DNA of 64,000 bases from an uncultured virus (IMG/VR IMGVR_UViG_3300032797_000730) (IMGVR_UViG_3300032797_000730); one strand, 5' to 3'. Counted from the stretch's first letter, positions 11,949 to 45,521 are shown. Notes: generated by a model from the letters alone, not told the origin. Made by a program: numbers and translations.

Positions 11949-11960
11949 TCAAAAATCACC
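11940..11960 (-). repeat. junction repeat B, copy 1 (GGTGATTTTTGAATGGCAAAC)
   Basis: Identical 21-mer at 25871-25891 on the + strand. Confidence 0.9.
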
Positions 11961-13028
11961 GTTCGTATCTGCTACGGTAGCAGTCTTTTCTTTTTTCTTG
12001 ATGATTACCTTGGTAACGCCGTCATCCACGACCTTGGCCTTCTTTGGCTTCTTCTCGGCCGCGAAGAGCTGTGCTGGAAAATCCAGCTTCACGCGGCGAT
12101 TAAAGCAGGGAAGGGCCGCCATCATGGAGGCGACATATGCTTGCTTGGTACGGCGTACCCATGAATCGACGGTGCTCAGCCCGTCGAGCATCGACAAGAG
12201 CGCCCCCATCGAGGGGGCCAGCCTGGCGGCGCTCCCGTCCACCCAATTAATTGCCCAAGATAAAGGGTCAGACGGGTGTTGGAGTGCAGCCAGTCGCCTC
12301 GCAGGATCCCGCTCGCCCACGATGACGCCTGCAATCCCCTCGGCCGAATACTCCTTCTCGGGCACGCGTTCGTCTCGAACGTCGTAGAGGATGCGGCGCA
12401 TTACTTCCCGGAAGTCGGGGGAATATATCTTCTCGGCATCGAGCGAGAGGTGCGGGAACTTCTTGTCGAGGAATACCTGGAGGTCTTTCAACTTGGGGGG
12501 GAACATCCGCATGACCGTGCATTGCTTCTTCACCGACTCTGGCACGCGGTCTATCTCGTTGCAGGTCATCACGATGGGGACCACGGCGTCCTCCAGGATA
12601 GAGTTGAAGGCGGCGTGCGAGCGCCAATAGAAGTTGTCGACCTCCTCGAATAGAAAGCAGGTGTTGGATTGAGTCGCGTGCCCGCCGAAGAGCTTCGAGT
12701 TGAGAAGCTCGGGCGTGCGGAACTCGGAAATGTTTATCTCGTTAAGGTTCTTGCCCGCGTCGTGGATGGCCTTGCGGGCGGAGATGGACTTGCCACATCC
12801 TGGCGGGCCGTGGATGATGACCTTCTCGCCAGCCAGGATGAGGGCCTTGAGCTTGGTAATCTCGTCGCCATGGCCAACGACAAACAGGGTGTCGGGCATC
12901 TCGTAGCTAGTGTAGGACTTGTACACGCCAGGCATCTCCCGGATCGGGATGCCCGTGGTCTGGGATATCTCCTCCAGGGTGAACCGGTTGGCCATGACAA
13001 GTTTTTTCAACATTTTCGCCGGGTCCAT
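11949..13028 (-). CDS. rfcL: replication factor C large subunit-like AAA+ ATPase
   Basis: GPPGCGKS, EINISEFRT, FEEVD, PIVMTCNE; Lys-rich tail ending ADTNGDF; near rfcS. Confidence 0.85.
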   Translation of the reverse strand: MDPAKMLKKLVMANRFTLEEISQTTGIPIREMPGVYKSYTSYEMPDTLFVVGHGDEITKLKALILAGEKVIIHGPPGCGKSISARKAIHDAGKNLNEINISEFRTPELLNSKLFGGHATQSNTCFLFEEVDNFYWRSHAAFNSILEDAVVPIVMTCNEIDRVPESVKKQCTVMRMFPPKLKDLQVFLDKKFPHLSLDAEKIYSPDFREVMRRILYDVRDERVPEKEYSAEGIAGVIVGERDPARRLAALQHPSDPLSWAINWVDGSAARLAPSMGALLSMLDGLSTVDSWVRRTKQAYVASMMAALPCFNRRVKLDFPAQLFAAEKKPKKAKVVDDGVTKVIIKKKEKTATVADTNGDF

Positions 13029-13049
13029 GAATTTGTAGAACTCGGCGAC

Positions 13050-13100
13050 TGTATTTATATTCTCGTGCCGGGAATTCCCGGCACAAAAAGGTTTAAATAA
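13050..13100. promoter_or_regulatory. divergent archaeal promoters
   Basis: + strand AAAAAGG-TTTAAATA (13085-13099); - strand TATAAATA ~25 nt before rfcL ATG; lies between divergent operons. Confidence 0.7.
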
Positions 13101-13168
13101 GGCAGCCGTTTCAAGGACGTGCCGAAAAGTTGATTTGTAACATTTTAAAACAACACAGGGTAAATAAC

Positions 13169-14875
13169 ATGGCGGTAGCAAAACGAGAACTCACGGAGAA
13201 AGAGTGGGCTGCGGAAGCAGCCTGGATAAAGAAGCTGGCCGAGTCGGCAGATGTCGAGCCAGAGGAAGTGAAAGGGAAGATAGCCGAGCGATTCGCCGAG
13301 TACGCGGACTTGAAGGAGCTCAAGGGCAAACCGGCGTCGTTCATCCTGCAGAGGGTGCGTAACCGGGTAACAGGAGACTTCAAAGGGCTTGCGAACCTCG
13401 ACACCTTCCACGGGTACATCGACGGGCCGAGCGGGCTGGAAAGGGACTGGAACGCCTCCAAGATGGCGGAGATACAGGACACGGCCAAGACACCGGATGC
13501 GGTGTTGGCCATGGCCAAGCCAACCATGGAGGAGAAGGTGATCGAAGGGAAGGCTACCAAGGTAGAGGTGCCTTCCAAGATCATCACCGTGACGGAGATC
13601 ATCGACGGGAAGCCAGTCGAGAAGCCGGTGCGGAAGCTGTTGAGGCCGATGCACAAGGACAAGGACGGCACGTGGCACGTCGTCCACGAGGTGAAAGAGG
13701 GCGGCAAGATGTTAAAGGCCTACGAGCTGTGGGAGAAGGCAGGCGATCCTGTTGTCCCGAGGGACACGTCAGAGTTCCTTGGTGACGGCAAGACCGAGAA
13801 TTTCAACTTCGGTGGCGAGCTCAAGCCTAACTGGGGCGTTAACCTCTCAGCAACATTCTTCTTGAGAAAGGAGGCCAACGAGTACTGCCCGAGGCGTGCC
13901 AATATCCAGGTCTATGGGGAGCTGGCGGACCCTGCTAACAAGGACAACATCGTGAAGGACCTTGAAGCGAGGGGGCTGTTCGGCGTGCCGGTGATGTTCA
14001 AGGGCGCGCTCAACACGGACAAGACCACGGAGGGACAGTTCCTCATCAGCGTGCGCCGCAAGTACGTGTGCCAGCCCCTGAAGGACGTGCCCGAGGGGAT
14101 GACTCTCGGGGCGAGCATCGATGCCTGGACCGGGCAGCCAGAATATTCGGGAGACCCGTTCGATGCATTCGAGGGCGGGGTGCCTGGGAAGCTTGTCAAG
14201 GGCGGTGACAGCCTTTTAGGAGAGTCCTTCGACAAGGGGATGCGTGCGGTGTACAAGGTAGGCACCACGGAGCGCGTGGATATGCTCTTCATGAAGGCGG
14301 AGGAAGCAAACGAGAAGGCTAAGAAGGCCGGGAAGGCGCCGCCGTATGCCATCAAGCTATTACCTTTCGCGACGGTAACGATGGGCACGCTGCGCGAGTG
14401 GCACGAGAAGTTCCAGATGACCACCAACGACTTCAAGGTCATCAAGCGAAAGACCGCCGACGAGTCCGGGGACTTCCAGGTAAAGAACAGGGCGAGATAT
14501 GCGGTCCTGGAATGCTCTGGGCAGCCTGCAGAAGCGCCTGCGGAGGGACAGTCGATACGGCTCGTTATCATGGACAGCGCCGACCCGGACACGAAGATGT
14601 CGGTGTTCCTGCCGAGGCACATTACGAGCGTCGGGTTCACTGGGCTGGCGGACCTCAAGCTCGTCATGCAGACCCGCAAGAAGGATACCTACTGGGACAA
14701 GGAAGCGAACGATAACCTGGAGGATGGTGATGGCCGGTTCGGCGACATACAACTGGACGTGGCGGCCATGATGGTGACGTTCGTGCACCCCGAGGAGGAG
14801 AATGACGTGCCTGGCACCGGCGGGATCGAGAAGAAGGTCAACGTGCCAGCGCCCGCGGAGAGGCCTGATGTCTGA
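13169..14875 (+). CDS. large hypothetical replication protein (possible ssDNA-binding/OB-fold)
   Basis: 568 aa, beta-rich, acidic C-terminal region, first gene of operon with ATPase and clamp; function inferred from context only. Confidence 0.6.
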   Translation: MAVAKRELTEKEWAAEAAWIKKLAESADVEPEEVKGKIAERFAEYADLKELKGKPASFILQRVRNRVTGDFKGLANLDTFHGYIDGPSGLERDWNASKMAEIQDTAKTPDAVLAMAKPTMEEKVIEGKATKVEVPSKIITVTEIIDGKPVEKPVRKLLRPMHKDKDGTWHVVHEVKEGGKMLKAYELWEKAGDPVVPRDTSEFLGDGKTENFNFGGELKPNWGVNLSATFFLRKEANEYCPRRANIQVYGELADPANKDNIVKDLEARGLFGVPVMFKGALNTDKTTEGQFLISVRRKYVCQPLKDVPEGMTLGASIDAWTGQPEYSGDPFDAFEGGVPGKLVKGGDSLLGESFDKGMRAVYKVGTTERVDMLFMKAEEANEKAKKAGKAPPYAIKLLPFATVTMGTLREWHEKFQMTTNDFKVIKRKTADESGDFQVKNRARYAVLECSGQPAEAPAEGQSIRLVIMDSADPDTKMSVFLPRHITSVGFTGLADLKLVMQTRKKDTYWDKEANDNLEDGDGRFGDIQLDVAAMMVTFVHPEEENDVPGTGGIEKKVNVPAPAERPDV

Positions 14876-16074
14876 TGATGCCATCGCCCCACACGGCGAC
14901 CAAGACATTCGTGGAGAAGCAGCCTTCCCCTGATTCTCCAGAGGCGGACGCGGAGACCAAGGCCCGCGTGGAGCAGGCCCGGAAAAACGCGGACATGGCA
15001 TTCTCCGAGGAGTACAAGCCAGGCTCTGGTTCCACGGGCCTGATCATTGCCGACATTGCCCTGGGGAAGGGGCACAAGACCACCTTCGCCTGGCAGTGGG
15101 CTTTTTTTAATTCCAAGTTCAAGTCCTTCATGGGGCCGCAGTGCCAGAGGATCATCACCACGGGACGATTGCCCGAGATAGAGAACATCGCTGTCGTGGA
15201 CACCGAGGAGACTGTCAAGAGGGACATGGATCACGGGTACCTGGGAGAGATAATGAAGCCCGTGATCGAGATAAGCAAGATACACATCGAGCCCGTGCCC
15301 CTGCTACGCAGCAGGGAGAAGATGAAGGATGGCGTCATCGTGAAGCTTGAAAAGGAATACGATGCCGACAAGATGCGGGACAACTTCGAGGCGGCCATCT
15401 GGGCTGCCGCTGAGAGGTTCAAGGGGAACACCCTTCTCATCGTGGATTCCATGAGTGATTATCGTGACATGATAACCGACGAGCAGGACACAATGGGCGG
15501 GAAAACCGTCATCAAGAAGTACGGGAGGAAGGCCGATGAGGAGGACGACGAGGAGACCAACACCGACCGCAGGTTCTACCGGTATCGCAACAAGTGGTGG
15601 ACCAACGTGCTGATGAAACTCAGGTCCACGTCGTGCTGGGTCGTCGAGACCTTCAAGCTGGAGACACGAGAGCCCGAGTGGCAATGGAAGGATGTCAAGA
15701 CGCGCGTGGGAACGGACAAGCTCAAGAAGGAGAGCTATGTCTACCATTCCATCAAACTGCCAGAGAACTATCCAGTGATGGTTGGAAAGACCGACTATCG
15801 TATCGACCAGGGTTACACGCTGCGCCAGATACTGGATGTCCAGACGGGCACCATGAAGGACTGCGTCCGCACGGACTGGTATCGCCACCCGCACAGCACG
15901 ATGCAGTACCTCAAGCTGCCTCAGGACCAGAGAGATACATGGGAATCCAAGTGCCTGCTCGACTTCCCGCAGTTCGATAGAATGGCATGCATGTATCTCA
16001 TAGAGGACATGGCGGCTGCACTACTTCAAGAGAGTGGCAAGACGAGTTGGGGCAAATATGGCAAGGAAAAATGA
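14875..16074 (+). CDS. RecA/Sak4-like P-loop NTPase
   Basis: Variant Walker A LGKGHKTT, IAVVDTE, Walker B LLIVDSMSD. Confidence 0.7.
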   Translation: MMPSPHTATKTFVEKQPSPDSPEADAETKARVEQARKNADMAFSEEYKPGSGSTGLIIADIALGKGHKTTFAWQWAFFNSKFKSFMGPQCQRIITTGRLPEIENIAVVDTEETVKRDMDHGYLGEIMKPVIEISKIHIEPVPLLRSREKMKDGVIVKLEKEYDADKMRDNFEAAIWAAAERFKGNTLLIVDSMSDYRDMITDEQDTMGGKTVIKKYGRKADEEDDEETNTDRRFYRYRNKWWTNVLMKLRSTSCWVVETFKLETREPEWQWKDVKTRVGTDKLKKESYVYHSIKLPENYPVMVGKTDYRIDQGYTLRQILDVQTGTMKDCVRTDWYRHPHSTMQYLKLPQDQRDTWESKCLLDFPQFDRMACMYLIEDMAAALLQESGKTSWGKYGKEK

Positions 16075-17071
16075 GGTGAAACCAGTGGCTGACAAGAAAG
16101 ACAAGCCGGTGGAGTTCGAGGTCAACCGAGAGGCGTTTCGCCAGTTCGTGGAGAACGTGCAGTGCAAGGGCATCTCGGACGTGAGCGAGAAGGAGAAGGT
16201 GACCCAGGGCGAGCTGTTCGAGAACTGCCTCCTCGAGGCGGTGAAGGGCAAAGGGATCGTCGTGAAGGCCACCGACACGAGCATCAACAAGGTGATCGGC
16301 CAGCACCTCCTCAGGGAGGGCGAGAGCCTCAAGGTAGTTACCGAGGGAGAGGTACCGGTTACCAACATCAAGAACCTGCTCATCGCGATTGGCAGGACGG
16401 GCGGCGACAAGAAGGGGAGATGCATGCAGGTACTCTATCCAGATCCAGACGAAGCCAACAAGATACGCCTCACCAGGATAGGGACGGAGACAGCGTTCTC
16501 CTTCACGACGAGCGGGCGTGGCGACATCACGTCCCTCAAGGACACGAGCGACATCCGCCACCGATGGGACGCAAAGTTAGGCTGCGTCATCTCCACGTCC
16601 ACCAAGACCAAGACGGAGATACCATGGACGCACAAGATCATCGTGGTGCCAGCGGCCCTTCGTGAGCTGGCCAAGGACGTTTCCAGCTTCGTCAAGCAGC
16701 GCGTCGCGAGGATGTCCATGGCTGGCCAGAAGTGCACGTTCCTCTTGGGTGAGGCGACCGCGTCGAAGAAGGGGGGCCGCGAGCTCACGCCCATCACGCG
16801 GAAGGTGATCGATGCCGAGATAGCCGAACCAGACAAGGACGGGTGGAAGCACGTGGCCAAGACGACGTGGAAGGAGGCTGGAGATGACGCCGAGAAGGTC
16901 GAGGCCAAGTACTACCACGGGTTCTACGCGGTGATACAGTCGCTCGAGGATTCCCTCCAGACCGAGCTGCACTGGGGCAAGATACCTGGCCTGGGGGACA
17001 GCTGGTATTGCTGGGTGCACGCGGAGAACGCCCTCATGGAACTGAACTACATGGTACCGTACGACAAGTAG
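16058..17071 (+). CDS. probable DNA sliding clamp (divergent PCNA/beta-clamp-like)
   Basis: FEVNREAFRQFV...LLEA..GIVVKATD...GEVPV.NIKNLL resembles the clamp fold, repeated; RFC and PolB present. Confidence 0.6.
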   Translation: MARKNEVKPVADKKDKPVEFEVNREAFRQFVENVQCKGISDVSEKEKVTQGELFENCLLEAVKGKGIVVKATDTSINKVIGQHLLREGESLKVVTEGEVPVTNIKNLLIAIGRTGGDKKGRCMQVLYPDPDEANKIRLTRIGTETAFSFTTSGRGDITSLKDTSDIRHRWDAKLGCVISTSTKTKTEIPWTHKIIVVPAALRELAKDVSSFVKQRVARMSMAGQKCTFLLGEATASKKGGRELTPITRKVIDAEIAEPDKDGWKHVAKTTWKEAGDDAEKVEAKYYHGFYAVIQSLEDSLQTELHWGKIPGLGDSWYCWVHAENALMELNYMVPYDK

Positions 17072-17080
17072 GTGGATGAC

Positions 17081-17296
17081 ATGGCGACGGCGCTGATAGC
17101 CGCGGTGATGGACCGGCTCAAGGACAAGAAGACGGGGGATATCATCGAGATGTGTGACAACTACGAGCGGTTCAAGGAGTTCGTGCAGACGATGCACCAC
17201 CTCATGGCAACCGGCCATGCCGAGATGGACGACGACGAGTTCACGGTGGCTGTAGGGAATGCCCTTAAAAAGGCCGACCCGGACTATTACAAGTAG
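17081..17296 (+). CDS. hypothetical protein
   Basis: 71 aa after SD GGTGG. Confidence 0.7.
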   Translation: MATALIAAVMDRLKDKKTGDIIEMCDNYERFKEFVQTMHHLMATGHAEMDDDEFTVAVGNALKKADPDYYK

Positions 17297-17319
17297 GTAA
17301 AACACGCACGCGGAGGCCC

Positions 17320-17469
17320 TGGCGGCCGGGCAATAGACCGCCAAAAACCAAGGCTGCCGGGCGGGAGAAAGGTTCCCGTCCAGAGGCGGTGGTGTCCTCA
17401 CGCTCAACGCCTGTGCGAGGGCGCGCGGAGAAGGCCATCGTCGCAGGGGCTCGCACAGCTCCTGGCAGC
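17320..17469 (+). ncRNA. unassigned highly structured RNA-like element
   Basis: TGGCGG/CCGCCA hairpin; closing stem GCTGCC(17353)/GGCAGC(17464-17469) enclosing GGGCGGGA/TCCCGTCC, GAGG/CCTC and CTGTGCGAG/CTCGCACAG; no credible ORF. Confidence 0.5.
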
Positions 17470-17478
17470 TATAACCCT

Positions 17479-17574
17479 GCGAGGGTAGCTCAGAAGCAGA
17501 GCACCGGGACACCAGCTTGAAGCCAGTGGCTGCATACCCGGCACGCGGAGGTGCGAGTCCTCCCCCTTGCTCCA
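17479..17574 (+). tRNA. tRNA with 21-nt anticodon-arm insertion, probably tRNA-Cys(GCA)
   Basis: Acceptor GCGAGGG/CCCTTGC, U73, encoded CCA; D stem GCTC/GAGC; AC stem CCGGG/CCCGG; T stem GGAGG/CCTCC; removing the insert leaves loop CT-GCA-TA. Confidence 0.65.
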
Positions 17575-17592
17575 AACAACGAGGCAAACAAT

Positions 17593-17850
17593 ATGACAAA
17601 GATCATCAACGCGGAACACTCGCCGAACATCAACGGCAAGGGCACCTGGTACGTCCTCATCGAGGTGGAGCGGTGCACCGAGAAGCACCCCGATCCATGG
17701 GACATCCATACGAAGCCATGCCAGAAGTGCGGAGGATACAGGGGGCATGGGGACAGGATAGAAACGTACAACGGTTTTGCAACGTTACAGGAATTGAAGG
17801 AATGGATAGATAGCAGGGTAGAACAGCATGGTAGTTCGCCGGACTCATAA
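17593..17850 (+). CDS. hypothetical protein overlapping tRNA-Met exon 1
   Basis: 85 aa with PCQKCGG, typical codons; TAA stop lies in the tRNA anticodon loop. Confidence 0.6.
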   Translation: MTKIINAEHSPNINGKGTWYVLIEVERCTEKHPDPWDIHTKPCQKCGGYRGHGDRIETYNGFATLQELKEWIDSRVEQHGSSPDS

Positions 17851-18012
17851 ACTGGTGGCGTGCTGGCAGATTGCGATTTGGCACTTTGGAAACACGCCTA
17901 GAAACGGCGCAGCCAAGACACCCCGTGCCCCAATAAATCCCCCTAACCGGGATGGCAGAAGGGCACGTCTTGGGACATCCGGTCATCGCAGGTTCAAATC
18001 CTGCCCCTGCTT
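17812..18012 (+). tRNA. initiator-type tRNA-Met(CAT) with 127-nt intron (17850-17976) at 37/38
   Basis: AGCAGGG/CCCTGCT (A1-U72), D stem GAAC/GTTC (A11-U24), CCGGA-CTCATA|A-TCCGG, T arm GCAGG-TTCAAAT-CCTGC; BHB central helix CUCA/UGGG with 3-nt bulges. Confidence 0.85.
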
Positions 18013-18036
18013 TTATGTTAACACGAGGCGAGACAA

Positions 18037-18918
18037 ACGAGCGAAAACAAGCCATACAAGTGCACGAAGTGCGGGTACAACCACAAAAGTGGTAAAATCT
18101 ACAACGAGCACAAGCAGTTCGCCGAGGTGAAGCCCACCGAGATCCAGGTAAAGGGCCAGGGCTCTTCACCGGTGGGGGGTTCATTCGACGAGCTGGACAA
18201 GATAGACGACGGCAGGCCGGGCGGCGGGGCGATCCCTATCCCGTCGACGAAGATGATCGTGACCAAGGACCATATCATCATCGGCAAGAACGCCACGGCC
18301 GAGCCCATTAAAAAGGGCGAGATCGTGAGGCCAGCGGGCATCGAAGATGACAAGAGAAGCCTGCTCCAGGCCTACAAGGTGGAGACGGCCAAGGACGGGA
18401 AAATGACGGGCACCGCCAGCCAGGCGGGCAAGATCATCAAGACGGCCAGGGTAGTCATCGAGCCCGAGAAGAAGGATTCTCAAGGGGCGTTCACGGTCAA
18501 GCACCTGGACGCGTTCCTGCTACACGCTAACCGGAAGCAGGTGAACCTGCTCACGACCGAGTTCCCGTGGGTGGTGAAGGATGGCGCGAGGCTCAAGGCC
18601 AACTGGCGGGTAGGGTGCTGGGAAAAACCCGACGGAGGGCGCATCCCGTTCACGGTCGAAGAGATGGTGAAGTACGCCGTCCTCATCGACAAGGTGAGCG
18701 GGAAGCACGCGGGGCTGCTCAAGAAGCGGCGCGCCAAGAAGGCGCTACGTGACTCGGCATACCCAAACACGTGGACCGAGCACGCCGCCGGGATCAAGGG
18801 CCAGTGCAAGGATTGCGTTAACAGGGGCGCCAAGTCGTGCGGGAACATGACCGTCGACGAGATCGTCAACGTCCTCGAGGGGAAGGCCAACTGCCCGATC
18901 TACAAGAAAGAGGGATAG
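18037..18918 (+). CDS. protein with N-terminal C2H2-like Zn finger and C-terminal Cys cluster; apparent ACG start
   Basis: In-frame extension upstream of GTG 18127: (M)SENKPYKCTKCGYNHKSGKIYNEH; SD-like GAGGCGA 5 nt before ACG. Confidence 0.7.
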   Translation, partial: TSENKPYKCTKCGYNHKSGKIYNEHKQFAEVKPTEIQVKGQGSSPVGGSFDELDKIDDGRPGGGAIPIPSTKMIVTKDHIIIGKNATAEPIKKGEIVRPAGIEDDKRSLLQAYKVETAKDGKMTGTASQAGKIIKTARVVIEPEKKDSQGAFTVKHLDAFLLHANRKQVNLLTTEFPWVVKDGARLKANWRVGCWEKPDGGRIPFTVEEMVKYAVLIDKVSGKHAGLLKKRRAKKALRDSAYPNTWTEHAAGIKGQCKDCVNRGAKSCGNMTVDEIVNVLEGKANCPIYKKEG

Positions 18919-18921
18919 GCC

Positions 18922-19508: not shown

Positions 19509-22500
19509 TGATGCCGCCACTGATGAACGAGCACATCTTCATCAAGGTAGCGCCCATCACCGACACGCGCACGATATGCATCATCAACAAGAACCACGAG
19601 ACCATGACCAAGGACGGGGAGGAAGTGCCCGTCTGGGTCGTGGCGGGGAAGGAGAAGGACGGCCGCCACTGGATGCTCAGGGTGCACGGGCCCCGCGTGC
19701 GGCCATCGTTCGGCGTGCCCTACGAGGAATTCTGGAAGGTGATGGACGATACCAGGCTCACGGGGTTCAGGAGGGGGCCAGACTCGCCATTCGGGGAGCC
19801 GGTGATGGAGGTGTTCACGAAGCTGCCAAAGGATATAGGGTCGGGGGAAGCAGCCATGCGGAACTTCGTGAGCCACTCGTACCAGGGAGACGTGCGGTTC
19901 GAGGACAAGGTGGCAATCGACCTTCGTATATGGGAGGGCTACATGACGTTCGATGCCAATGCCGTCGGTGAATTTGGATACGTGGAGGATAGATACGTTG
20001 GCCCGCCGCCAGAGGGGTACGAGAAGTTCTACGTGCCCAAGACGAAGGTGTACTTCGATTCGGAATGGAACATGGCAATGCTGGCGGACGGGGAGGGGCG
20101 GATACGGTTCAGGAGAAAGAAAGGGCAGAAGGATGACCCGACGAAGTATGAAAAGGCCAAGGTAATAACAATCTCCTTCCTGGAAGCGGTGGGATGGAAG
20201 TTCCACGTGTTCACGTGGCACCCGAGGGTGAAGGTGAAGTGCAAGTTCCAGGAGCAATACCTCTCGCGCATCGCCGAGAAGGCGAGGAAGCGGCTGCCAC
20301 AGATGCCAAGGGAATACACGGCCGAGATACACGCGTGCACGAGCGAGAGGGAGTTGCTCGTGGCGATGGTGGATTACCTGGCAGGGGCGCAGATAGATTG
20401 TCTCATCGGGTTCAACGCGTTCTCCGGGATACACGGGATCGGGGGGGACAAGAAGTGGATAAATGGGTTTGACATGCCCTGGCTGTACAGGCACTGCATG
20501 GTCAACCCGAAGCACAATACTAACTGGGTGCCGAGGGACCCGGACGTGAACCTCCATCGCATATCGCCTGTTGGCGTGACGTACATGCGGGAGGAGTTCG
20601 GGAAGGAGGAAGTCGTTATAAGGATGATAACGTGCCTGGACCTCTGGCACATGATGAGCTTCTTCGAGTACCACAAGAAAGACAAGCTCAAGAACGAGAA
20701 GCAAGGAACGTTCATGGAGAAGTACCTGGGGATAGGGAAGTATCCACGGAAGTATAAGTGGGTCTGGGAGGAATGGGAGAAGGAGCCGCTCGACGAGAGA
20801 AAGTACAACATGGCCGACACCGAGGGATGCGCGGGCGTGGAGCAGATATTTAACCCGAGCGAGGACTGCTTCAACAGGGCCACGTTCTCTGGCGCCAGCT
20901 GGGACGCAGGGATGTCGGCGAGCAGGCTGCACGACCTGGTGAACCTGCACCTCTACAAGGACTGCTATTACCTGGATTCAAAATCATATGATGACCGGCA
21001 CGAGCGGATTTGGTTATGGGGAGGATTTAGCGATGAGAAGGTAGGGGGGTTTAACAAGGAGGTTAACAAGGGGATGCACAGGATGGCCATCGGCCTGGAC
21101 TTCAACAAGTTCTACCCGATGGCGGGGATCGGTTCTAATTGCGCCCCCGAGACGTTCGTGAACATGACCAGGCTCAAGCTTGACAAGCGGGGCCTGGTCG
21201 TCGTGGACAAGCGCCCCTATCTCAAGCACGAGGTGACGGACTGGCCAGCGTTCGTGAAGGAGTGCAAGGAGTTGAGGGAGAGGGACGCGCTCACGAGGAC
21301 GCTCGCAGTGCAGGATGTCATCACGAATGACCTCATCGGCTGGAAGGAGACAGAGTATCTCTGGGGAGACTTGATAGTTACCCCGGCGGGGCTGTTCAGG
21401 AAGGACATCATCGCCAAGAATGTCAAGGCGTTCCAGGACATGCTCAAGAACAGGAAGGCGCTCCAGAAGATAGCGGACAAGATACTGGAGGCTATCAAGG
21501 ACAAGGACGCGTTCGAGTACGTGCTGGCGGACCTGCGGCAGTTCTCCTACAAGCAGTACATGAACGGAAGGTTCGGGGTGCAGGGGCTGGAATCTGATAG
21601 GCTTTACATGCTGGCGCTGTTCAACACCTATACCCTCGTGTGCCAGGAGATAATCAAGGAATGTATCAGGTACATCGAGGAGGAGCTCGTGTATCCGGTG
21701 AACCTGGCGAGCACGGATTCCATGTTCGTCGATGCCAAGCTGCCCCCGAAATGGATCGAGGACAAGGGAAAGGTGTACTTGCAGGAGGCCGAATGGCTCT
21801 CGGAGAAAGTGCAGGAACACGCCCAGGAGTTTGCCATGCACGAGTTCAACATCAGCGACCCGAGCGTGTTCACGCTTGAATGCGATGTCATCTGCAAGAC
21901 CATGTTCATCGAAAACATGCGGTTTTACATCAAGAACGTGATGTGGAGCAAGGGGGTCATCCTGGACCCGCCGCAGCTGGAATTCAAGGGAATGAAGAAG
22001 GTACGGCGGGAAGTGGCGGCGATAACCGAGGACGTGCAGGAGCGGCTCGGCAAGATATACATGAACGACGGGACGTTCCAGGACATCCAAAACGAGGTCA
22101 AGAAGCTGCACGCCGAGTTCTCGTCCAAGCCACTGTGGGAGGTGTGCAAGTCCCTTCCAGTGAACCAGCCACTCGATGATTATGCCGAGACGAGCGAGCA
22201 GTTCAAGGCGTTCACGATGGCCGACAAGTACTTCGGCCTGGACGTGTCGGTGGGCGAGCGGTTCTATGTCGCCCCCGTGAAGTACTGCCCGCCCGCGATA
22301 AAGGGCATCAAGGTAGACCCGCGGCTCGGGGATGTCTTGGCATTTGACGAGGACACGCTCCCGGCGATAGAGGCCGCGGGGATAGTGATAGACGTGCACG
22401 AGCTGGAGGACAAGGCCGTGGCATCGCCCGCGGACGAGATACTCGAGATGTTCGGCACGGGATATTGGAAAATACTGTCGGCCGCGAGGATAGCCGACAC

Positions 22501-22516: not shown

Positions 22517-22524
22517 TGGCAAAC
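22505..22524 (+). repeat. junction repeat A, copy 1 (GGTGAATTCTGATGGCAAAC)
   Basis: Identical 20-mer at 24017-24036. Confidence 0.9.
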
Positions 22525-24028: not shown

Positions 24029-24036
24029 TGGCAAAC
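24017..24036 (+). repeat. junction repeat A, copy 2
   Basis: Identical to 22505-22524. Confidence 0.9.
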
Positions 24037-34606: not shown

Positions 34607-34610
34607 GATC

Positions 34611-34781: not shown

Positions 34782-34999
34782 GCCAGAAGATGTGCGAGAC
34801 CTGCATATTCGGCAGGAACGCGACCATCTACATCCTGTGCACCAACACTCTCAATTACCTCGACGAGATGACCGCTGGCAAGAACCACGTCACCAGGGGC
34901 GGCATCCCGCACTCGTCCTCGTACACGTGTTCCCGCTGGTCGCAGGACAAGATAGAGCTCATAGCATTCATACCAGGAGGAGACAAAAACAATGGTTAA
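34778..34999 (+). CDS. small Cys-rich protein
   Basis: CETCIF...C...CSRW. Confidence 0.7.
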   Translation: MSQKMCETCIFGRNATIYILCTNTLNYLDEMTAGKNHVTRGGIPHSSSYTCSRWSQDKIELIAFIPGGDKNNG

Positions 35000-36931: not shown

Positions 36932-37123
36932 ATGGGATCGAAGGTGTTTGCGGACAAGTTTCGCGAGATAAGAAAGAGCCTTGATGATTTGAAAGGCGCC
37001 ATGACCGTGGACGATTTGAAAGAGATGGTGGACAAAAAAATCGAGTGGATCTTGAACATCCTCATAATATGGTTCGATGACGAGAAATACCCCGACGGGA
37101 TGGGGGATCTACGAAAGAACTGA
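36932..37123 (+). CDS. hypothetical protein
   Basis: 63 aa, GAGGTGG SD. Confidence 0.65.
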   Translation: MGSKVFADKFREIRKSLDDLKGAMTVDDLKEMVDKKIEWILNILIIWFDDEKYPDGMGDLRKN

Positions 37124-37136
37124 GCAGGTGAATCAA

Positions 37137-37811
37137 ATGGAATACAGGACATCAGAAACGCTCGAAGAAAGCAGGGCGCGCTGGGAACGCCTCGCAAAGA
37201 AGATGGACATCCAGTCCATCATCGGCAAGCCCATGGACAGGGAGGAGTTCTTTAGAACAGGAGAGAAGTCGGTAACCGAGCTCATCGCCATCATGGCACT
37301 CGTGGGCGCCAAGAGGGAAGGCACCATACTCGACTTCGGCTGTGGCATAGGCAGGGTGGCGAAGGCACTCATCCCTGTTTTCAAGAGGGTCGTTGGCGTG
37401 GACATATCACAAGACATGATAGACAAGGCGATGGCAAACGTGCCCATGGCCTGGTTCAAGCGGGCGGATGACCTGTCCTCTTTCAAGGACGGGGAATTCG
37501 ACGTGGTGTGGTCCCAGTTCGTCCTGCAGCACTGCCCGCAGGAAGTGCAGTTCAACACCATCAAGGAGTTCCTGAGGATAACCAAGCCTGGCGGGTTGAT
37601 AACGTTTGACGTGCTCGTCGGCAAGGACGAGCCAGGCCCGAGGTGGGGCGTGATATCTACCCATGATGACTACGCCGTTCTCATGTACAGCGTTCACGAG
37701 AGGGACGTGGACCGGGTACTCGTGCACGAGGGCAGCAGCGTCCTCAAGCTGTATCGTGACGGCGGTGCGTTCTGCAGGTATGCCATCTTGAAAAACAAGG
37801 GGGCGACGTGA
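37137..37811 (+). CDS. class I SAM-dependent methyltransferase
   Basis: ILDFGCGIGR, GVDIS, FDVVWS.FVLQH, LRITKPGG. Confidence 0.92.
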   Translation: MEYRTSETLEESRARWERLAKKMDIQSIIGKPMDREEFFRTGEKSVTELIAIMALVGAKREGTILDFGCGIGRVAKALIPVFKRVVGVDISQDMIDKAMANVPMAWFKRADDLSSFKDGEFDVVWSQFVLQHCPQEVQFNTIKEFLRITKPGGLITFDVLVGKDEPGPRWGVISTHDDYAVLMYSVHERDVDRVLVHEGSSVLKLYRDGGAFCRYAILKNKGAT

Positions 37812-39178
37812 TGGCAGGATACACTGTCATATCACTGTTCTACAACCAGCACGAGCGGCTCCCCATGCTCAAGCGAGCATGGGACGCCCAGACTGTCAAG
37901 CCAGACGAGATCATCATCGTGGACGATGGCAGCGACGATCCGGTAGAAGTGGATTGGGCGAGGGTGATACGGCTGCCTCACACGATGAACATCGCCCGCG
38001 CGAGCAACGTGGGCGTTGACGCCTGCAAGTCCGAGTACTACGTGATAACGTCGCCCGACACGATATACTCGCCCAACTTCGCCGGGGAATCCTTGCGGCT
38101 GATGACCACTACCCCTTGGGCATCCAAGATGATGTTCTACGGCGCGTGCGGTGATACCAAGTCTCCAGACAACCTGCCGCCGTTAAACTTTATCCCCGTA
38201 GCAGAAGCATGGCCCCCCGCGGCCCCATCCGCCTGGATGATGTGGAAGCCAGGCTTCCTTCGATTCGACGAGGCCTACAAGGGCTGGGGAAGGTACGACG
38301 ACGACTACGCCCTCCGGTTCATCCGCTCGGGCGGCAAGTTCTTTCCCGCCCCGGGGTTAGGCTTGTGGCACCTGGACCATCTATCACCACCCCTCTGCAA
38401 GAAGCGCGGCGAGAAACAACTATGGGAGTTCAAGGCGCCCGAGAATGACAACTACAGGAAGTTCACGGCCCTCAATCACCTGGAGGATGGCTACACGGTC
38501 ATCTCCCTCTTTTATAACCAGCACGAGCGCCTTGGCATTCTCAAGCGGTGGCTCACCGACCAGGTACTCAAGCCAAATGAAATAATCATCATGGACGACG
38601 GGAGCGACGAGCCCGTGAAGGTCGACTGGGCCCGCACCATCACCCTTCCCCATACCATGAACATTGCCAAGGCAAGCAACCTGGGGGTCCAGGCCGTGAG
38701 GACCAAGTACTTCGTCATCACCTCGCCAGACCTGCTATACTCGCCAAACTTCGCGTCCAGGTCCATCGAGTTGCTCGAAAGGAACGTGGGCATGTACGTG
38801 GTCGTCGGTGGCTGCGTTCCCGCCATGGACTCGCTCGTGTACATGAAAAACCCTCCCAAGTCGGTGTACCACGTCCCCGATGGAATATACAGCCAGCACC
38901 CTGCCGACTACGCGCCCACTGGATGGATAGAACGAACTGGCCATTTCCTGGGCTTCGACGAGAGAGCACTTGGCTGGGGATTCTATGACAACGAGTATTC
39001 CAACAGGTACGTTGCCGAGGGAGGGAAATACATCGTGTGCAACGACATCTGCATGTACCACTTGAACCACTGGGCCGATCCAAAGTGCCTAAGACGAATG
39101 AGGGATGAAGTGAAGTTCCGCGTCGACAATAGAAACCTGTATCTCATCCAGGGTGATCCTAAAGATGCAAAACACTAA
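37811..39178 (+). CDS. tandem double GT2 glycosyltransferase
   Basis: Two copies of YTVISLFYNQHERL...III.DDGSD...FDE...GWG.YD. Confidence 0.88.
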   Translation: MAGYTVISLFYNQHERLPMLKRAWDAQTVKPDEIIIVDDGSDDPVEVDWARVIRLPHTMNIARASNVGVDACKSEYYVITSPDTIYSPNFAGESLRLMTTTPWASKMMFYGACGDTKSPDNLPPLNFIPVAEAWPPAAPSAWMMWKPGFLRFDEAYKGWGRYDDDYALRFIRSGGKFFPAPGLGLWHLDHLSPPLCKKRGEKQLWEFKAPENDNYRKFTALNHLEDGYTVISLFYNQHERLGILKRWLTDQVLKPNEIIIMDDGSDEPVKVDWARTITLPHTMNIAKASNLGVQAVRTKYFVITSPDLLYSPNFASRSIELLERNVGMYVVVGGCVPAMDSLVYMKNPPKSVYHVPDGIYSQHPADYAPTGWIERTGHFLGFDERALGWGFYDNEYSNRYVAEGGKYIVCNDICMYHLNHWADPKCLRRMRDEVKFRVDNRNLYLIQGDPKDAKH

Positions 39179-40076
39179 CTATTATAGCAACGAGTTGAAG
39201 TTACTCGAGCACGTCCACGAGTTGAAGCTGATAACGACCATGCCACGCCCTATCGACATCGTCATCTCGCTCACGGGCGCGTGCAACCAGAAGTGCCCAT
39301 TCTGCTACGTGAAAGGCGAGAAGCCCCGTTGGAACCAGGGCGTGGATGACATCAAGAAGCTCATCGACATGGTAGAACCCAAGGCCGTGGAAATAAGCGG
39401 CGGAGAGGCCACGCTCCATCCGGGCCTGGACGAGCTCGTCGAGTGGATAGCCAGGCGTGGCATCAACGTGGCCCTCACGACGAACGGCACCCTCCTCCAC
39501 CTGCACACCAAGACCCTCCACATTTTCTCTTGGATACGCGTGTCCGTGAACGTGTACATCCATGGTAGCGAGAAGAGCGATCTCCTTCTCCTGGCCGAGA
39601 AAGAAATTCCCAAGACCACCACGTATGGCTACAACTACGTGTATAACAGGTACCAGCCGTTCTCCATGGGCGCGCTGATGGACTTCATGGCCCGCCACCC
39701 GCGGGCGGAATACTTGCGGGTATCTCCTGATATCAATTCCACGGATGACGAGCTCGTTAACTTCATCAACATGGAGATTCTTGTTGGCAGCAAGATATTC
39801 AAGTCCATCTTGCCGAAGTACAAGCCATACGATGGCCAGTGCTATTGCGGGTGGATAAAGCCGATGGTGGAGAGCAACGGGAACATCTATCCCTGCTTCC
39901 GCATCCTCGCCGATGGCTACAGGGACAAGGCCGTGCCGATAGGGCATATCAAGGACCCGACCTGCCTTTTAAAGTTCAAGGAGTTCACCCCGCACTGCGA
40001 GCGGTGCTATCTCCACGCCAGGAACGAGTTCGTGGACGCCCTCGTGAAGGGCATGAAACATGGAAACTTCGTGTAG
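39165..40076 (+). CDS. radical SAM protein with SPASM/twitch domain
   Basis: CNQKCPFC, SGGE, TTNG, CYCG...NGNIYPC...CERC. Confidence 0.92.
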   Translation: MQNTNYYSNELKLLEHVHELKLITTMPRPIDIVISLTGACNQKCPFCYVKGEKPRWNQGVDDIKKLIDMVEPKAVEISGGEATLHPGLDELVEWIARRGINVALTTNGTLLHLHTKTLHIFSWIRVSVNVYIHGSEKSDLLLLAEKEIPKTTTYGYNYVYNRYQPFSMGALMDFMARHPRAEYLRVSPDINSTDDELVNFINMEILVGSKIFKSILPKYKPYDGQCYCGWIKPMVESNGNIYPCFRILADGYRDKAVPIGHIKDPTCLLKFKEFTPHCERCYLHARNEFVDALVKGMKHGNFV

Positions 40077-40088
40077 ATGGTGGCGAGC

Positions 40089-40703
40089 ATGAACGATGAT
40101 TTTTTATTCTGGGAAAACGACTTCATTACCAAGAAGCACGGGAATCTCCAGGTCCTAAAAGGGTTCAAGTACCATGCAGGGTTAAAGATCGGGCTGAATT
40201 TATTGCACCAGGGCAGGCACGCGGCCCCGATAATCGTGGAGACAGGGACGCAGCGGGCGATAGACGATCCTGGTGGTTGTAGCACCCTGATCCTCGGGTG
40301 CTACCTCCAGAAGAAGGGAGGGCACTTGTGGACATGTGACATCAACCCCAAGAGCGTTGCAGCGGGCAAGGTTGCCACGGCCGAGTACAAGGATTTTATA
40401 ACATACGTTGCAGGCGACTCGATACAGTTTCTCAAGACATTTAGCGGGAGAATAAATCTCCTGTTCCTGGACAGCATGGACTGCGACCCAACGGGGGATG
40501 CGATCCCGGCGCAGGTACATCAGCGCGAGGAGTTCCTGGCGGCGGAGAGATGTTTCGTGAAAGGATCGGTCCTCGTCATGGACGACACGAACTTCCCGAA
40601 TGGCGGGAAAACCAGGCTGCTCAAGAACTTCATCCTGGACAATCGAACGGGGTGGAAGCTGATCTGCGATTATGGAGAGACGGTTTTCTACAAGGTGGAA
40701 TGA
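40089..40703 (+). CDS. SAM-dependent methyltransferase (Methyltransf_24-like)
   Basis: IVETGT, CDIN, GDSIQFL, LLFLDS, VMDD. Confidence 0.85.
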   Translation: MNDDFLFWENDFITKKHGNLQVLKGFKYHAGLKIGLNLLHQGRHAAPIIVETGTQRAIDDPGGCSTLILGCYLQKKGGHLWTCDINPKSVAAGKVATAEYKDFITYVAGDSIQFLKTFSGRINLLFLDSMDCDPTGDAIPAQVHQREEFLAAERCFVKGSVLVMDDTNFPNGGKTRLLKNFILDNRTGWKLICDYGETVFYKVE

Positions 40704-40704
40704 T

Positions 40705-41379
40705 ATGAAGAAGATCATCGTTTTGGGGGACAGCCACGGCCGCATCTTCGACGGGGTATTCCATAGAAAGGAGATACAGACAACTGCATACGGGTTGCTC
40801 GATGGAGAGAAAGGGAAGGAGCTGATAGCATCGATAAATAAAGCAGACGCCATCGTCCTCTCGGCCGGGGAATTGGACTGCCGCTTCCATGTCAACAATC
40901 AACGCGTCGTCACCGGCACGAGTTATGGCCTCGTGATAGATGCAATCCTCGAAAGGTTTGTTAGATACATCATGTCCATTCCTGTAAAGGTGTACGTGCT
41001 CGGGATACCGCCCGCTGGCTGGCAAAAGAACATTTACGGCGCCCCCAACTACGCGGCGCCCGAGCAGCACGCCGAGATATACAGGATGTTCCATGAAAAG
41101 GAGATGGAGAAGATGGAAAAATTTGGGATAACGTGCATCGACATGTATGCCCTGTTCGTCGGGCCTGACGGCCATTTTCTCCCGGAGTGGACGAAGGATG
41201 GCGTGCATCTCGTGAACAGCGCCGTGAACGTGGCACTCGGGGCCATATCCCCGGAGGCGTGCTGGAACCGGCACTGCGAGGAGTACCAGCAGGACTTCGA
41301 GATGCTTGCACTCGCCAGGGCCAAGAAACTCAAGGAGGAGAAAGAGAAATGCCAGAGCAAAGATGGGACGACCCCCTGA
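40705..41379 (+). CDS. SGNH/GDSL-like hydrolase or acyltransferase
   Basis: VLGDSH block I, GELDCR, DGVH block V. Confidence 0.82.
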   Translation: MKKIIVLGDSHGRIFDGVFHRKEIQTTAYGLLDGEKGKELIASINKADAIVLSAGELDCRFHVNNQRVVTGTSYGLVIDAILERFVRYIMSIPVKVYVLGIPPAGWQKNIYGAPNYAAPEQHAEIYRMFHEKEMEKMEKFGITCIDMYALFVGPDGHFLPEWTKDGVHLVNSAVNVALGAISPEACWNRHCEEYQQDFEMLALARAKKLKEEKEKCQSKDGTTP

Positions 41380-41663: not shown

Positions 41664-41668
41664 TTAAA

Positions 41669-42697: not shown

Positions 42698-42703
42698 GAA
42701 CGC

Positions 42704-44617
42704 TTGGTCGTAGAAATCCACCAGATATCACGGGGTAACCTTGGCCAGGAACCTGCCACGTGTGACGAGTTCCGTGGCCTGTTAAAATCACAAGATCCAT
42801 GGGTCCTCAAGAACCTTGGAATAGAATACACTGATCCTTTGGAATGGTTAAGAAAATACGACGCCGCAAGTACCATAGGAGAGATGACATCGAACCCGAA
42901 TGCCAGCGTCGGGAACCAGAAGAACTCCAGGAACAGGGCGTCCGAGATGGCCTCCCCATGGTTGAAGTTGAGGGGCCTCGACGAGCTGTGGTCATGGGGC
43001 AAGGAGGTGTTCGGGAAGGACTTCTCGCTCGACCCCGTCTTCTCCGGGAAGCTCTACATCCACAAGCTCTCGAAGCTAGACCGGCCCTATTGCGTCGGTG
43101 CGAGCTGCCTGGACATCATGCAGGACGGCCGCCCCTACGCTGACATTGTTGGCAAGCCCCCGAAACACTTCAGCTCGTTCATGGGCCAGATGTTCGAGTA
43201 TGTCCTCAACATGGTCGGCGACTGGTCTGGCGCGATAGCCGTGAGTGATTGGATGCCTGGCATGGCATACTACGTCCGCAAGGAGAAGGTTCCCGACACG
43301 GCGATACGCCAGGAATGGCAGGCCATCGTCCACAAGTTCCATAACAAGTGGCGAGAGGACGGCGACCCCCCGTTCACGAACACCTCTTTCAATTCCCCCT
43401 CGGTGCTCGAGGACATCTTCAAGACTGCCGTGTTCCCGGATGGCTCGAACGTGCTCGATTACAAGGACGAGATAATGCACGTGCAAGACGTGCTCCTCCA
43501 GTTCATGGCCGAAGGCGACCCCTCGAAGGCCGGCATCCAGTACAAGTTCCCGGTGATGACCGCCAACTTCAAGCCCGAGGACATCGGCTCCCCCTGGTGG
43601 GAGAAGGTAGCCAGGAAAAACAACGAGGGCTTCCTCAACATCTGCCACGCCGCCATGTTCGCCAGCTGCTGCCGCCTCCTCTCAGACTACAGGACCATGC
43701 TCAAGATGAAGCAGTACTCGAATGGTGGAGGGGGCATCAAGACAGGCTCTCACATGGTAGTAGCGCTCAATCTACCGGGCATAGCCAAGTCCACGAAAGG
43801 ATGGTCCGAGTTCATGGACGAACTTGGCGTGATGATCGACCACGCCGTGCGATATCTCTACATTCACAAGCACTTCATCTTGGGAAGGCGAATCAAGGAT
43901 GCATACAATCCTTTTCTCGCCAAGTTTCGTGATGATGCCGGTGATGTCCTTGACGTGGGCCCTTGGATGCACCTCAACATGTTTTTCAGCACCATCGGCG
44001 TGCACGGCGTGCCCGAGATGGTGCAGGAGTTCGGGGAGGACGTGACGGAGAAGCATGGCGCCCGGCTCGCCGAGAGGGTGCTCACGTATATCGTCAACAG
44101 GGCGAATGATTACAGCAAGCAATTCACCGAGAATGTTGGCGATGATGGCATCATCATGGTGTTCAACGTGGAACAGATACCGGCGGAATCGGCGAGCCAT
44201 ACCATGGCATCGTTCTTCGGTGACGAGATGTACTCGAACCAGTTCGTCCCGCTGGACCAGCCGATAGATATATGGAAGCGGGTAGAGATAGAAGGAAGGC
44301 TCTCCAAGATACTCACTGGGGGGAGCATGACGTTCCTGCATCTTGGCTCCGCCATGGACCCGGACCAATCGCTGCTGTTTCACAAGCGGGTGATGCAACG
44401 GAGCGGCGGGAATCTCAACCAGTTCTGCGTGGACTACGGGTTCTCGCTGTGCAAGAAATGCAACACGAAAGTAGTTGGCAGGGTCGAGAAATGCTCGTGC
44501 GGGAGGCCGATGCGGCACTACCAAAGGGTCGTGGGGTACATGGTCCCGGAGTCGTCGGTGAACCGCCCGAGAGTCGTTAATGATATAAGAAAACGTTTAG
44601 GTTACGAGCACTGGTGA
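42704..44617 (+). CDS. nrdD: class III anaerobic ribonucleoside-triphosphate reductase
   Basis: PYC, ASCCRL, GSHMVVALNLP, TIGVHG, EQIPAES, CKKC..CSCG, glycyl-radical motif RVVGY. Confidence 0.95.
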   Translation: MVVEIHQISRGNLGQEPATCDEFRGLLKSQDPWVLKNLGIEYTDPLEWLRKYDAASTIGEMTSNPNASVGNQKNSRNRASEMASPWLKLRGLDELWSWGKEVFGKDFSLDPVFSGKLYIHKLSKLDRPYCVGASCLDIMQDGRPYADIVGKPPKHFSSFMGQMFEYVLNMVGDWSGAIAVSDWMPGMAYYVRKEKVPDTAIRQEWQAIVHKFHNKWREDGDPPFTNTSFNSPSVLEDIFKTAVFPDGSNVLDYKDEIMHVQDVLLQFMAEGDPSKAGIQYKFPVMTANFKPEDIGSPWWEKVARKNNEGFLNICHAAMFASCCRLLSDYRTMLKMKQYSNGGGGIKTGSHMVVALNLPGIAKSTKGWSEFMDELGVMIDHAVRYLYIHKHFILGRRIKDAYNPFLAKFRDDAGDVLDVGPWMHLNMFFSTIGVHGVPEMVQEFGEDVTEKHGARLAERVLTYIVNRANDYSKQFTENVGDDGIIMVFNVEQIPAESASHTMASFFGDEMYSNQFVPLDQPIDIWKRVEIEGRLSKILTGGSMTFLHLGSAMDPDQSLLFHKRVMQRSGGNLNQFCVDYGFSLCKKCNTKVVGRVEKCSCGRPMRHYQRVVGYMVPESSVNRPRVVNDIRKRLGYEHW

Positions 44618-44623
44618 CGAGAT

Positions 44624-45061
44624 TTGAGCCTCAAAAACAAGGACAGTATCAAGGCCGAGGACGAGACAACCCTCGCCCTGATGAGCCAGGAGAAGCCCCA
44701 GAAAGGGGCGCCGGTAAAGCCAACCATGAAACCCCCGGCCGAGCGGCCGGTGGAACCAGCCGATCCAGCCGATCTCCCCCAGTTGAACCAGATAAACGCG
44801 GAGGGGCCGTTTCTCGACGTGAATGCCTTCGAGTACGTGCTGGCCGTTCCAAAAACGTTTGACAACCAAAAAATGTTTGATGTCGGTGGCAGGCAGTTCC
44901 TGGGGCTCGCGCCATCAAACTGGTGCGAGAACGTGAAGTTTTTCGTGAACGGCGTGCTCAAGAATTTCCAGTCCTTGAAGATCGAGCTGGACGGCACCCT
45001 GAAACTGGATTCAAGAAACAGGCCAGTTGCCCCGGTGCCAAAGGTGATCATCGATGGCTGA
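44624..45061 (+). CDS. hypothetical protein
   Basis: TTG start after GGTGA SD; Pro-rich N-terminus. Confidence 0.75.
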   Translation: MSLKNKDSIKAEDETTLALMSQEKPQKGAPVKPTMKPPAERPVEPADPADLPQLNQINAEGPFLDVNAFEYVLAVPKTFDNQKMFDVGGRQFLGLAPSNWCENVKFFVNGVLKNFQSLKIELDGTLKLDSRNRPVAPVPKVIIDG

Positions 45062-45521
45062 GGAGGAACCAATAGACACTGGAGGGGCCGCGAGGCATTT
45101 TCACACGGCCACGGTGATCACCGACAAGATTGCCAGGAAGGCCTCCTTCCAGGGCGTGCCGAAGGTCGACGCGAATAAATGCCCGTGGTGCGGGGGCCTG
45201 GACTCAATCGTGGACAACAGGTGCCAGATGCCTGGCTGCGGCAAGCCGGTGATATACACCGGGCCAAAACCCGTGGACGAGCCAGCCATCTCCAGCGACG
45301 AGGCTGACATGATAGCACGCCGCAGGGCCGAGAAGATGGAGAGCCTGGCAGGCATGGGCCCCCTGCCAGGGAACATCCGGGAGATGCGGAGGGAGATGCG
45401 GCGGCGTTTGGATGCCGCGGCCGCCACGGAACAGAAACCGGCGCCAAGGCCACGAAGGGCGCCGCCAGTGGCCATGCCCGACGAGGGCAGTGGACCAGCA
45501 GATACAACGGGTGAATTCTAA
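45054..45521 (+). CDS. zinc-ribbon protein with ADTTGEF tail
   Basis: CPWCG...CQMPGC; disordered tail ending ADTTGEF. Confidence 0.75.
   Translation: MAEEEPIDTGGAARHFHTATVITDKIARKASFQGVPKVDANKCPWCGGLDSIVDNRCQMPGCGKPVIYTGPKPVDEPAISSDEADMIARRRAEKMESLAGMGPLPGNIREMRREMRRRLDAAAATEQKPAPRPRRAPPVAMPDEGSGPADTTGEF

Follow-up and report, generated by a model that had tools for sequence, protein, structure and literature searches.

The DNA considered here, a stretch of 64,000 nucleotides (64 kb; hereafter the window) from an uncultured virus (IMG/VR IMGVR_UViG_3300032797_000730) whose genome may measure about 83 kb, comes from a tailed virus, as seen from a Baseplate_J gene and a long minus-strand structural block that begins at about 46 kb. 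Its replication and DNA-modification module comprises the clamp-loader subunits RFC-S and RFC-L, a family B DNA polymerase (PolB), two Dam-type methylases, a further N6_N4 methylase, a PD-(D/E)XK nuclease, an RNase H and NrdD. Six unrelated proteins, all encoded in this module, finish on the same short peptide, A-[DS]-x-x-G-[DE]-F, with the stop codon directly after the Phe (Table 1), and we propose that this tail probably docks its carriers onto the virus's own PCNA-like sliding clamp. A sequence-only reading of the same DNA had listed the six tails as a candidate clamp tag; all of them translate as it claimed, and its naming of PolB, the D12-class Dam methyltransferase, the HNH endonuclease and the clamp-loader-like RFC-L is borne out by profile matches.

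Table 1. Features of the window, with positions counted from its first letter (aa, amino acids; nt, nucleotides; SD, Shine-Dalgarno sequence)
Feature	Position	Strand	Basis or remark
RFC-L, AAA+ clamp-loader large-subunit-like, 359 aa	11949-13028	-	phrog_168 clamp loader E 1.5e-10; AAA; weak RFC match E 2.5e-4
RFC-L tail ADTNGDF	11949-11972	-	translation
PolB, 1003 aa	19505-22516	+	PF00136
PolB tail ADTTGEF	22493-22516	+	translation
D12-class Dam DNA methyltransferase, 280 aa	23186-24028	+	PF02086 E 1.3e-17
Dam tail ASTSGEF	24005-24028	+	translation
149-aa protein, family-less	25433-25882	+	tail translation
149-aa protein tail ADPFGDF	25859-25882	+	translation
HNH endonuclease, 110 aa	32305-32637	+	phrog_2255 E 2.8e-23
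HNH tail ADVFGEF	32614-32637	+	translation; Gly codon GGA, no coupled start downstream
Zn-ribbon protein, 155 aa	45054-45521	+	signature CPWCGG...CQMPGCG
Zn-ribbon protein tail ADTTGEF	45498-45521	+	translation; Pro/Arg-rich linker precedes
Divergent PCNA-fold sliding clamp, 337 aa	16058-17071	+	AlphaFold2 (AF2) model, Foldseek, VIA-align
RFC small subunit (RFC-S), 332 aa, without tail	10615-11613	-	A. fulgidus RFC small subunit 2chg E 7.8e-48; Pfam AAA, DNA_pol3_delta2
Dual-coded junction GGTGAATTCTGATGGCAAAC	22505-22524	+	codons G-E-F, stop, SD and ATG of next gene (MAN...) overlap
Junction of the same design	11941-11960	-	overlap as at the PolB tail
Junction of the same design	24017-24036		overlap as at the PolB tail
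Junction of the same design	25871-25891		overlap as at the PolB tail
Junction with coupled next gene	45510-45523		next start MCM
568-aa protein, conserved	13169-14875	+	gene order common to all relatives
Possible internal tail-core copy DPFDAF (residues 329-334 of 568-aa protein)	14153-14170	+
48-aa ORF, tail-less	24028-24174
263-aa protein	18127-18915
tRNA, anticodon CAU	17812-18012	+	Rfam RF00005, 42.9 bits; 129-nt anticodon-loop insertion
Glycosyltransferase and methyltransferase block	32994-41379	+	early region
121-aa protein	32657-33022	+
Nucleoside 2-deoxyribosyltransferase-like gene	9372-9767	-
Third DNA methylase (N6_N4)	7820-8947	-

Genes were called with our own codon-usage model, trained on the long open reading frames (ORFs) of the window; it is a heuristic and not a standard gene finder, and gave 95 genes. 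The tail was scored as A-[DS]-x-x-G-[DE]-F-stop, with [AS][DS]xxG[DE]F as a wider form for ORFs. Among the 562 ORFs of at least 40 aa in the window, the full pattern, or even G[DE]F-stop, was found at six C-termini, which are the six tails (6/95 called genes), and a C-terminal [DE][FWY] at one further ORF of at least 60 aa, which is antisense. When the 95 proteins were shuffled 20,000 times, ten of the shuffles placed the full pattern at one C-terminus and none at two (expectation about 0.0005); G[DE]F was met at three C-termini in a single shuffle, and [DE]F at six in none. Inside the proteins of the window it occurs once, as ADESGDF in the 568-aa protein; we judged this copy to be due to chance, given that it is not conserved in the orthologues. 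Several of the tails are preceded by low-complexity linkers (KKKEKTATV, GKHKNEHKNKYNG, KPAPRPRRAPPVAMPDEGSGP).

Relatives with gene context are few (three lineages). The related contigs compared were L002 (PolB 71% identical), G001 (also L014; PolB 69%; 90 genes), L007 and G002 (PolB 39%), the last a complete genome of 88,646 bases with terminal repeats and 115 genes. In L002 the tail is found on RFC-L (VSTFGEF), PolB (ANTMGDF), the D12 Dam (AETTGEF) and the orthologue of the 149-aa protein (SDPFGDF). Six of the G001 genes carry it, namely those for RFC-L (MNLDDF), PolB (ANTHGDF), the D12 Dam (ADTGGDF), a small Zn-ribbon ORF (ANTFGDF) and the orthologues of the 149-aa protein (ADPFGDF) and of the Zn-ribbon protein (GDPFKDF). 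RFC-L of L007 ends in DIFGDF, and three further PolB proteins end in ANTHGEF, ADTFGEF and MNPFGDF. The G002 form is DP[FW][DEY]F-stop, borne by five genes: RFC-L (VDPFDF), PolB (YDPWEF), the D12 Dam (ADPWYF), an N6_N4 methylase (YDPWDF) and an uncharacterised 197-aa protein (FDPFDF). Over all 25 tails (6 from the window, 4 from L002, 6 from G001, 1 from L007, 5 from G002 and 3 from the further PolB proteins), the last residue is always Phe and the one before it is Asp or Glu in 24.

Seen gene by gene, a Phe-terminal tail is kept on RFC-L in 5/5 lineages, on PolB in all seven complete C-termini examined and on Dam in 4/4 orthologues, while proteins that lack it in the window, among them RFC-S, NrdD, RNase H, the PD-(D/E)XK nuclease and the clamp itself, lack it in their orthologues as well. 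The 149-aa protein, for which Pfam, PHROG and NCBIfam gave no family and an Atlas search only sub-threshold leads, is 34-42% identical to its orthologues overall, yet its final seven residues match them at 6/7 and 7/7 positions. The 155-aa Zn-ribbon protein, without a match in Pfam, is 45% identical to its G001 orthologue, in which the tail is retained in other codons (AAG) and without GGTGA, and the linker before it has diverged. In the case of HNH, the third codon positions have a G+C fraction (GC3) of 0.59, against about 0.75-0.85 in the neighbouring genes, and the gene is missing from G001, where its flanking genes adjoin; these features suggest a mobile endonuclease that was inserted recently, and yet it bears the virus-specific tail. 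Within G001, the end of Dam (16784-17548; ETNAADTGGDF) and that of the next small Zn-ribbon ORF (17520-17705; ETNAANTFGDF) resemble each other over 11 residues, 30/48 nt being identical, which suggests that the tag was copied locally from Dam to its neighbour; the equivalent 48-aa ORF of the window is tail-less.

The tails are not neutral at the nucleotide level. GGT, the rarest Gly codon of the window (8.7%), encodes the tail Gly in 5/6 window tails (P = 2.9e-5) and in 14 of the 15 window-clade tails that have a Gly and for which DNA is available. The resulting GGTGAW lies 6-7 nt upstream of the next start, and the next gene overlaps or abuts the stop codon. All five copies of GGTGAWTTYTRR in the window are at tails, and four of the junctions have in common a block of about 20 nt, GGTGAWTTYTGA(A)TGGCAAAC, with an M-A-N start. 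The genes that follow these four tails (11946-11948 on the minus strand, 22516, 24028 and 25883) all begin with ATGGCAAAC (M-A-N), as does no other called start in the window; local gene conversion between the junctions, or a favoured start context, may account for this.

Such a design raises the question of whether the peptide is itself functionless, a by-product of a cassette optimised for translational coupling (GGTGAWTTYTGA-ATG). The bias to GGT is what this explanation predicts, as is the fact that five of the six tails abut a coupled start, four of them with TGA(A)TGGCAAAC. We nevertheless consider it highly improbable. GGTGA is present within the last 27 nt at 15 of the 54 tightly coupled junctions of the window, in all three frames, and 10 of these 15 genes end in unrelated peptides (GDLS, KVVK, VRDA, VMKR, KEI and others before the stop), so the SD does not force G[DE]F-stop. 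Nor does the SD explain A-[DS]-x-x and the invariant Phe. GGTGA is missing from the HNH tail, from the G001 Zn-ribbon tail and from all five G002 tails, since in G002 the SD lies 3' of the stop, and the tail is absent from every structural gene among those called in the window, at which a by-product of GGTGA might equally have been met. As the sequence-only reading had said, the HNH copy has GGA and no coupled start; its next ATG lies 20 nt downstream, with an AGGTGA of its own.

The common block could also be read as a repeated RNA or DNA junction element, such as the operator of a RegA-like repressor or a recombination junction, with the similarity of the peptides being secondary. Its presence at four junctions of the replication module would fit, and in RB69 and T4 the replication genes are regulated by RegA at their start sites (RB69 annotation). 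We give this explanation very little credence, given that the block is confined to the window genome, while the relatives keep the peptide with other nucleotides and other downstream starts, the MAN start not being conserved. Moreover, Pfam and PHROG scans identified no regA-like gene in the window.

Comparison of the sequences thus indicates that selection acts on the peptide, which is kept through synonymous changes in the orthologues and, without GGTGA, in the distant G002, and that in the window clade the tail is dual-coded, for peptide and SD together, rather than a by-product. Selection on the peptide had been argued before from synonymous codon variation; that variation is real, but the nucleotides are not free to drift, the G-[DE] codons being also the SD of the next gene. 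In the simplest history, an ancestral D-P-[FW]-[DE]-F tail would have admitted a residue at position -2, which in the compact clade of the window would have become a GGT-coded Gly, with GGT-GAW then doubling as the SD of the following gene; tight gene packing would have led to this double use at stop-start-coupled junctions.

The candidate receptor lies in the same region. The sequence-only reading had taken the protein at 16058-17071 for a divergent clamp, and fold prediction agrees with it: the AF2 model, built on a seven-sequence alignment, has a predicted local distance difference test score (pLDDT) of 80.3 and a predicted template modelling score (pTM) of 0.83. Foldseek gave at least 500 matches to it at E <= 0.001, and all among the matches listed are PCNA or PCNA complexes, the best being PCNA 5a6d_A (E 1.2e-10, 13% identity); they include 1isq, the PCNA of P. 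furiosus with the PIP peptide of RFC-L. In VIA-align, an independent search against representatives, PCNA scored Z 19.7 (root-mean-square deviation 3.0, 239 residues aligned) and gp45 Z 15.7, and each of the best 41 rows is a sliding clamp or a processivity factor. The sequence had no match in Pfam (E <= 0.01; PCNA_N/PCNA_C), PHROG, NCBIfam or the PDB. Its family is very small, with 20 representatives (E <= 1e-3) out of 1.84 billion, and one distant member has a sub-threshold match to DNA_pol3_beta (E 0.053). The monomer model therefore supports a PCNA-type two-domain clamp protomer. A 263-aa protein, weighed as an alternative clamp on account of its size, had no match in PDB, Pfam, PHROG or NCBIfam. 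In the clamp and loader region, the neighbouring RFC-S is by its sequence clearly of archaeal type, and the role of RFC-L as the large subunit is taken from gene order.

Several systems are known in which a clamp is bound through the end of a protein chain. PolB and the clamp loader are ligands of the clamp pocket, in archaea through C-terminal peptides (PMC2705854, PMC4929162), and archaeal RFC-L is described as binding PCNA in this way (PMC2705854). The 11 C-terminal residues of RB69 gp43 were crystallised on the RB69 clamp, according to the review PMC2705854, and its sequence ends KKASLFDMFDF, the F-D-F-COOH of which is close to VDPFDF and YDPWEF of G002 and to DPFGDF of the window. In T4, as PMC2988020 reports, gp43, gp33 and gp55 have one hydrophobic-acidic C-terminal clamp epitope on variable linkers, and the epitopes are interchangeable. 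Likewise, the ending described here is common to PolB and five other window proteins, and is similarly distributed in G001 and G002. The differences are that the present clamp is nearer to PCNA than to gp45, that one subunit of the loader, RFC-S, is of archaeal type, and that in place of transcription factors the clients comprise DNA methylases, Zn-ribbon proteins and an HNH nuclease. RB69 gp55 ends ...LDFLYEDDN, whereas every tail here, a putative clamp ligand, stops exactly at Phe. The extreme C-terminus of E. coli Pol III alpha, QVELEF-COOH, is a clamp site as well (PMC2705854); it likewise ends a polymerase with an acidic residue and Phe-COOH in contact with a clamp, but the clamp is a bacterial beta-clamp, the core is Gln-Leu, and no family-wide sharing is seen.

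The classical PCNA-interacting protein (PIP) box, Qxx[LIM]xx[FY][FY], is found at the C-termini of archaeal and eukaryotic PolB, RFC-L, Fen1, RNase H2, NucS and NreA (PMC4929162, PMC2705854). Like it, the tail is C-terminal on PolB and on the large loader subunit, follows a flexible linker and occurs in a system with a PCNA-fold clamp, and A-x-x-[F/M/x]-G-[DE]-F can be aligned in register with Q-x-x-L-x-x-F. RNase H, by contrast, is tail-less here. The tail is best filed, by analogy, as a T4/RB69-like shared clamp epitope or as a truncated PIP box in a PCNA/RFC-type system. It is no canonical PIP box, but it has more precedent than the sequence-only reading implied, being close to the clamp-binding end of RB69 gp43 and to the epitopes of T4 gp43, gp33 and gp55. 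What is unusual is the list of clients (D12 and N6_N4 methylases, an inserted HNH nuclease, Zn-ribbon proteins and the 149-aa protein), the strictly terminal Phe and the overlap with the SD. A keyword search of the literature, which cannot exclude an earlier description, found none of such a tail in the texts that it reached.

Taken together, these observations favour a docking function of the tail, with the PCNA-like clamp encoded by the virus itself as its target; to this reading we assign a probability of roughly 0.65. We infer the clamp as the receptor because RFC-L and PolB, the carriers in every lineage, are classical ligands of the clamp pocket, because the clamp-binding end of the RB69 polymerase resembles the tail, because T4 gp43, gp33 and gp55 provide a precedent for a shared C-terminal epitope, and because several tails follow low-complexity linkers. 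As a short linear motif, hydrophobic and acidic, always at the extreme C-terminus, always ended by Phe and carried on a flexible linker, the tail would plug into the partner-binding hydrophobic pocket of the viral clamp. RFC-L and PolB, with the same tag, would compete for one site on the clamp, which would give the usual hand-off from loader to polymerase. Through this tag, clamps left on new DNA would also hold one or two DNA methyltransferases, the HNH nuclease, small Zn-ribbon proteins and the 149-aa protein.

A number of points speak against the clamp as the partner of the tail. It is proposed as receptor by analogy and from the identity of the tagged proteins only, and, at 337 aa, it is about 90 residues longer than PCNA. 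The tail departs from the PIP box much as the sequence-only reading had it: Gln is at position 1 in 0/6 window tails and 0/25 overall, the Leu-type position (-3) is N, T, S, F, F and T in the window and thus polar in 4/6, and there is one aromatic residue only, at which the chain stops. The use of GGT in 14/15 Gly tails shows strong nucleotide selection, so that part of the conservation serves translation. In addition, a 515-aa gene of the structural module of G002 ends in GDDEF, though without the DP[FW] core.

The tail might also be a docking or sorting tag whose receptor is not the viral clamp but host PCNA, another viral replisome protein (the 568-aa protein or a 399-aa protein, both encoded between RFC-L and the clamp), a protease or the localisation machinery. 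Phe-ended acidic tails are known to serve other hubs, as in bacterial SSB and T7 gp2.5. The pairing of tail and clamp is itself inferred, and the 568-aa and 399-aa proteins, which are conserved and keep the same gene order in all relatives, are without a recognised fold. This alternative appears unlikely to us, although it deserves attention, given that the carriers present in every lineage are a clamp-loader subunit and a polymerase, both classical pocket ligands in the accounts of PMC2705854 and PMC4929162, that the tail resembles the clamp-binding end of RB69, and that reliance on host PCNA is less likely in a virus that encodes a clamp of its own.

The 568-aa protein has no assigned fold (AF2 pLDDT 45), and an Atlas search with it gave only sub-threshold leads. 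It contains a possible internal copy of the tail core, within GDPF[DE]xF at residues 327-334, where GDPF[DE] is kept in 4/5 orthologues and L007 has GDAFD. Its C-terminus is acidic, ends in E[RK]PDV and recalls tails of the SSB type.

Returning to the clamp as receptor, the tail could go further and form a private address code, one that needs the free carboxylate of the Phe and is read by the viral clamp only and not by host PCNA. The virus would then possess an insulated toolbelt, with a portable tag that in one clade has been recoded to hold the ribosome-binding site of the next gene. We put this forward tentatively, as possible but doubtful. The portability that it supposes would be illustrated by the recently inserted, low-GC3 HNH gene and by the copy from Dam to the next ORF in G001; orthogonality to the host is speculation.

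The host is probably archaeal, as three features indicate: an intron-type tRNA, an RFC-S of archaeal type and the PCNA-like clamp. The tRNA, with its insertion in the anticodon loop, looks intron-bearing in archaeal style; it overlaps two weak ORF calls, 17551-17850 and 17828-18130, both of which are therefore doubtful. A virus-supplied tRNA reading GGT was also considered: ARAGORN predicted a tRNA-Gly(ACC) of 96 nt at 17479-17574 (+), which falls below the Rfam gathering threshold and is probably spurious, and the idea was dropped. PolB and RFC-L have only distant matches, PolB being about 24% identical to polymerases of haloarchaeal tailed viruses. A search of the genome collection found no relative, host or provirus, neither the DNA nor the clamp had a relative among cultured phages, and scans of viral contigs with distant clamps and a further PolB added no relatives. 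HSTV-2, in which neither a clamp nor RFC is annotated, was not used as a control.

Other genes of the window point to additional modification functions. The block in the early region encodes three glycosyltransferases (GT1/GT4, GT2), three S-adenosylmethionine (SAM) methyltransferases, a radical SAM enzyme and a GDSL-like hydrolase, and may serve glycan modification of the DNA or the virion. The nucleoside 2-deoxyribosyltransferase-like gene and the third DNA methylase, both upstream of the RFC genes, hint at further modification of DNA bases. The 121-aa protein ends in ...KGTGM in the window, ...KSTGL in G001 and ...ENTGMF in G002, which may be a second, distinct conserved C-terminal ending.

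If the tails bind the clamp, a small family of uncultivated viruses would possess a natural clamp toolbelt, with a list of clients that can be read from C-termini alone. Among these would be an HNH nuclease and DNA methyltransferases from two families, none of which ranks as a classical clamp client in prokaryotic viruses, and three proteins without a family would gain a role near the fork. The tail is also a clear case of a putative protein-interaction motif and a ribosome-binding site coded in the same six nucleotides, and a warning for annotation, in that codon bias here is no evidence against selection on the peptide. Should the private code exist, methylation of new DNA, the HNH nuclease and the Zn-ribbon factors would be coupled to the virus's own replication forks.

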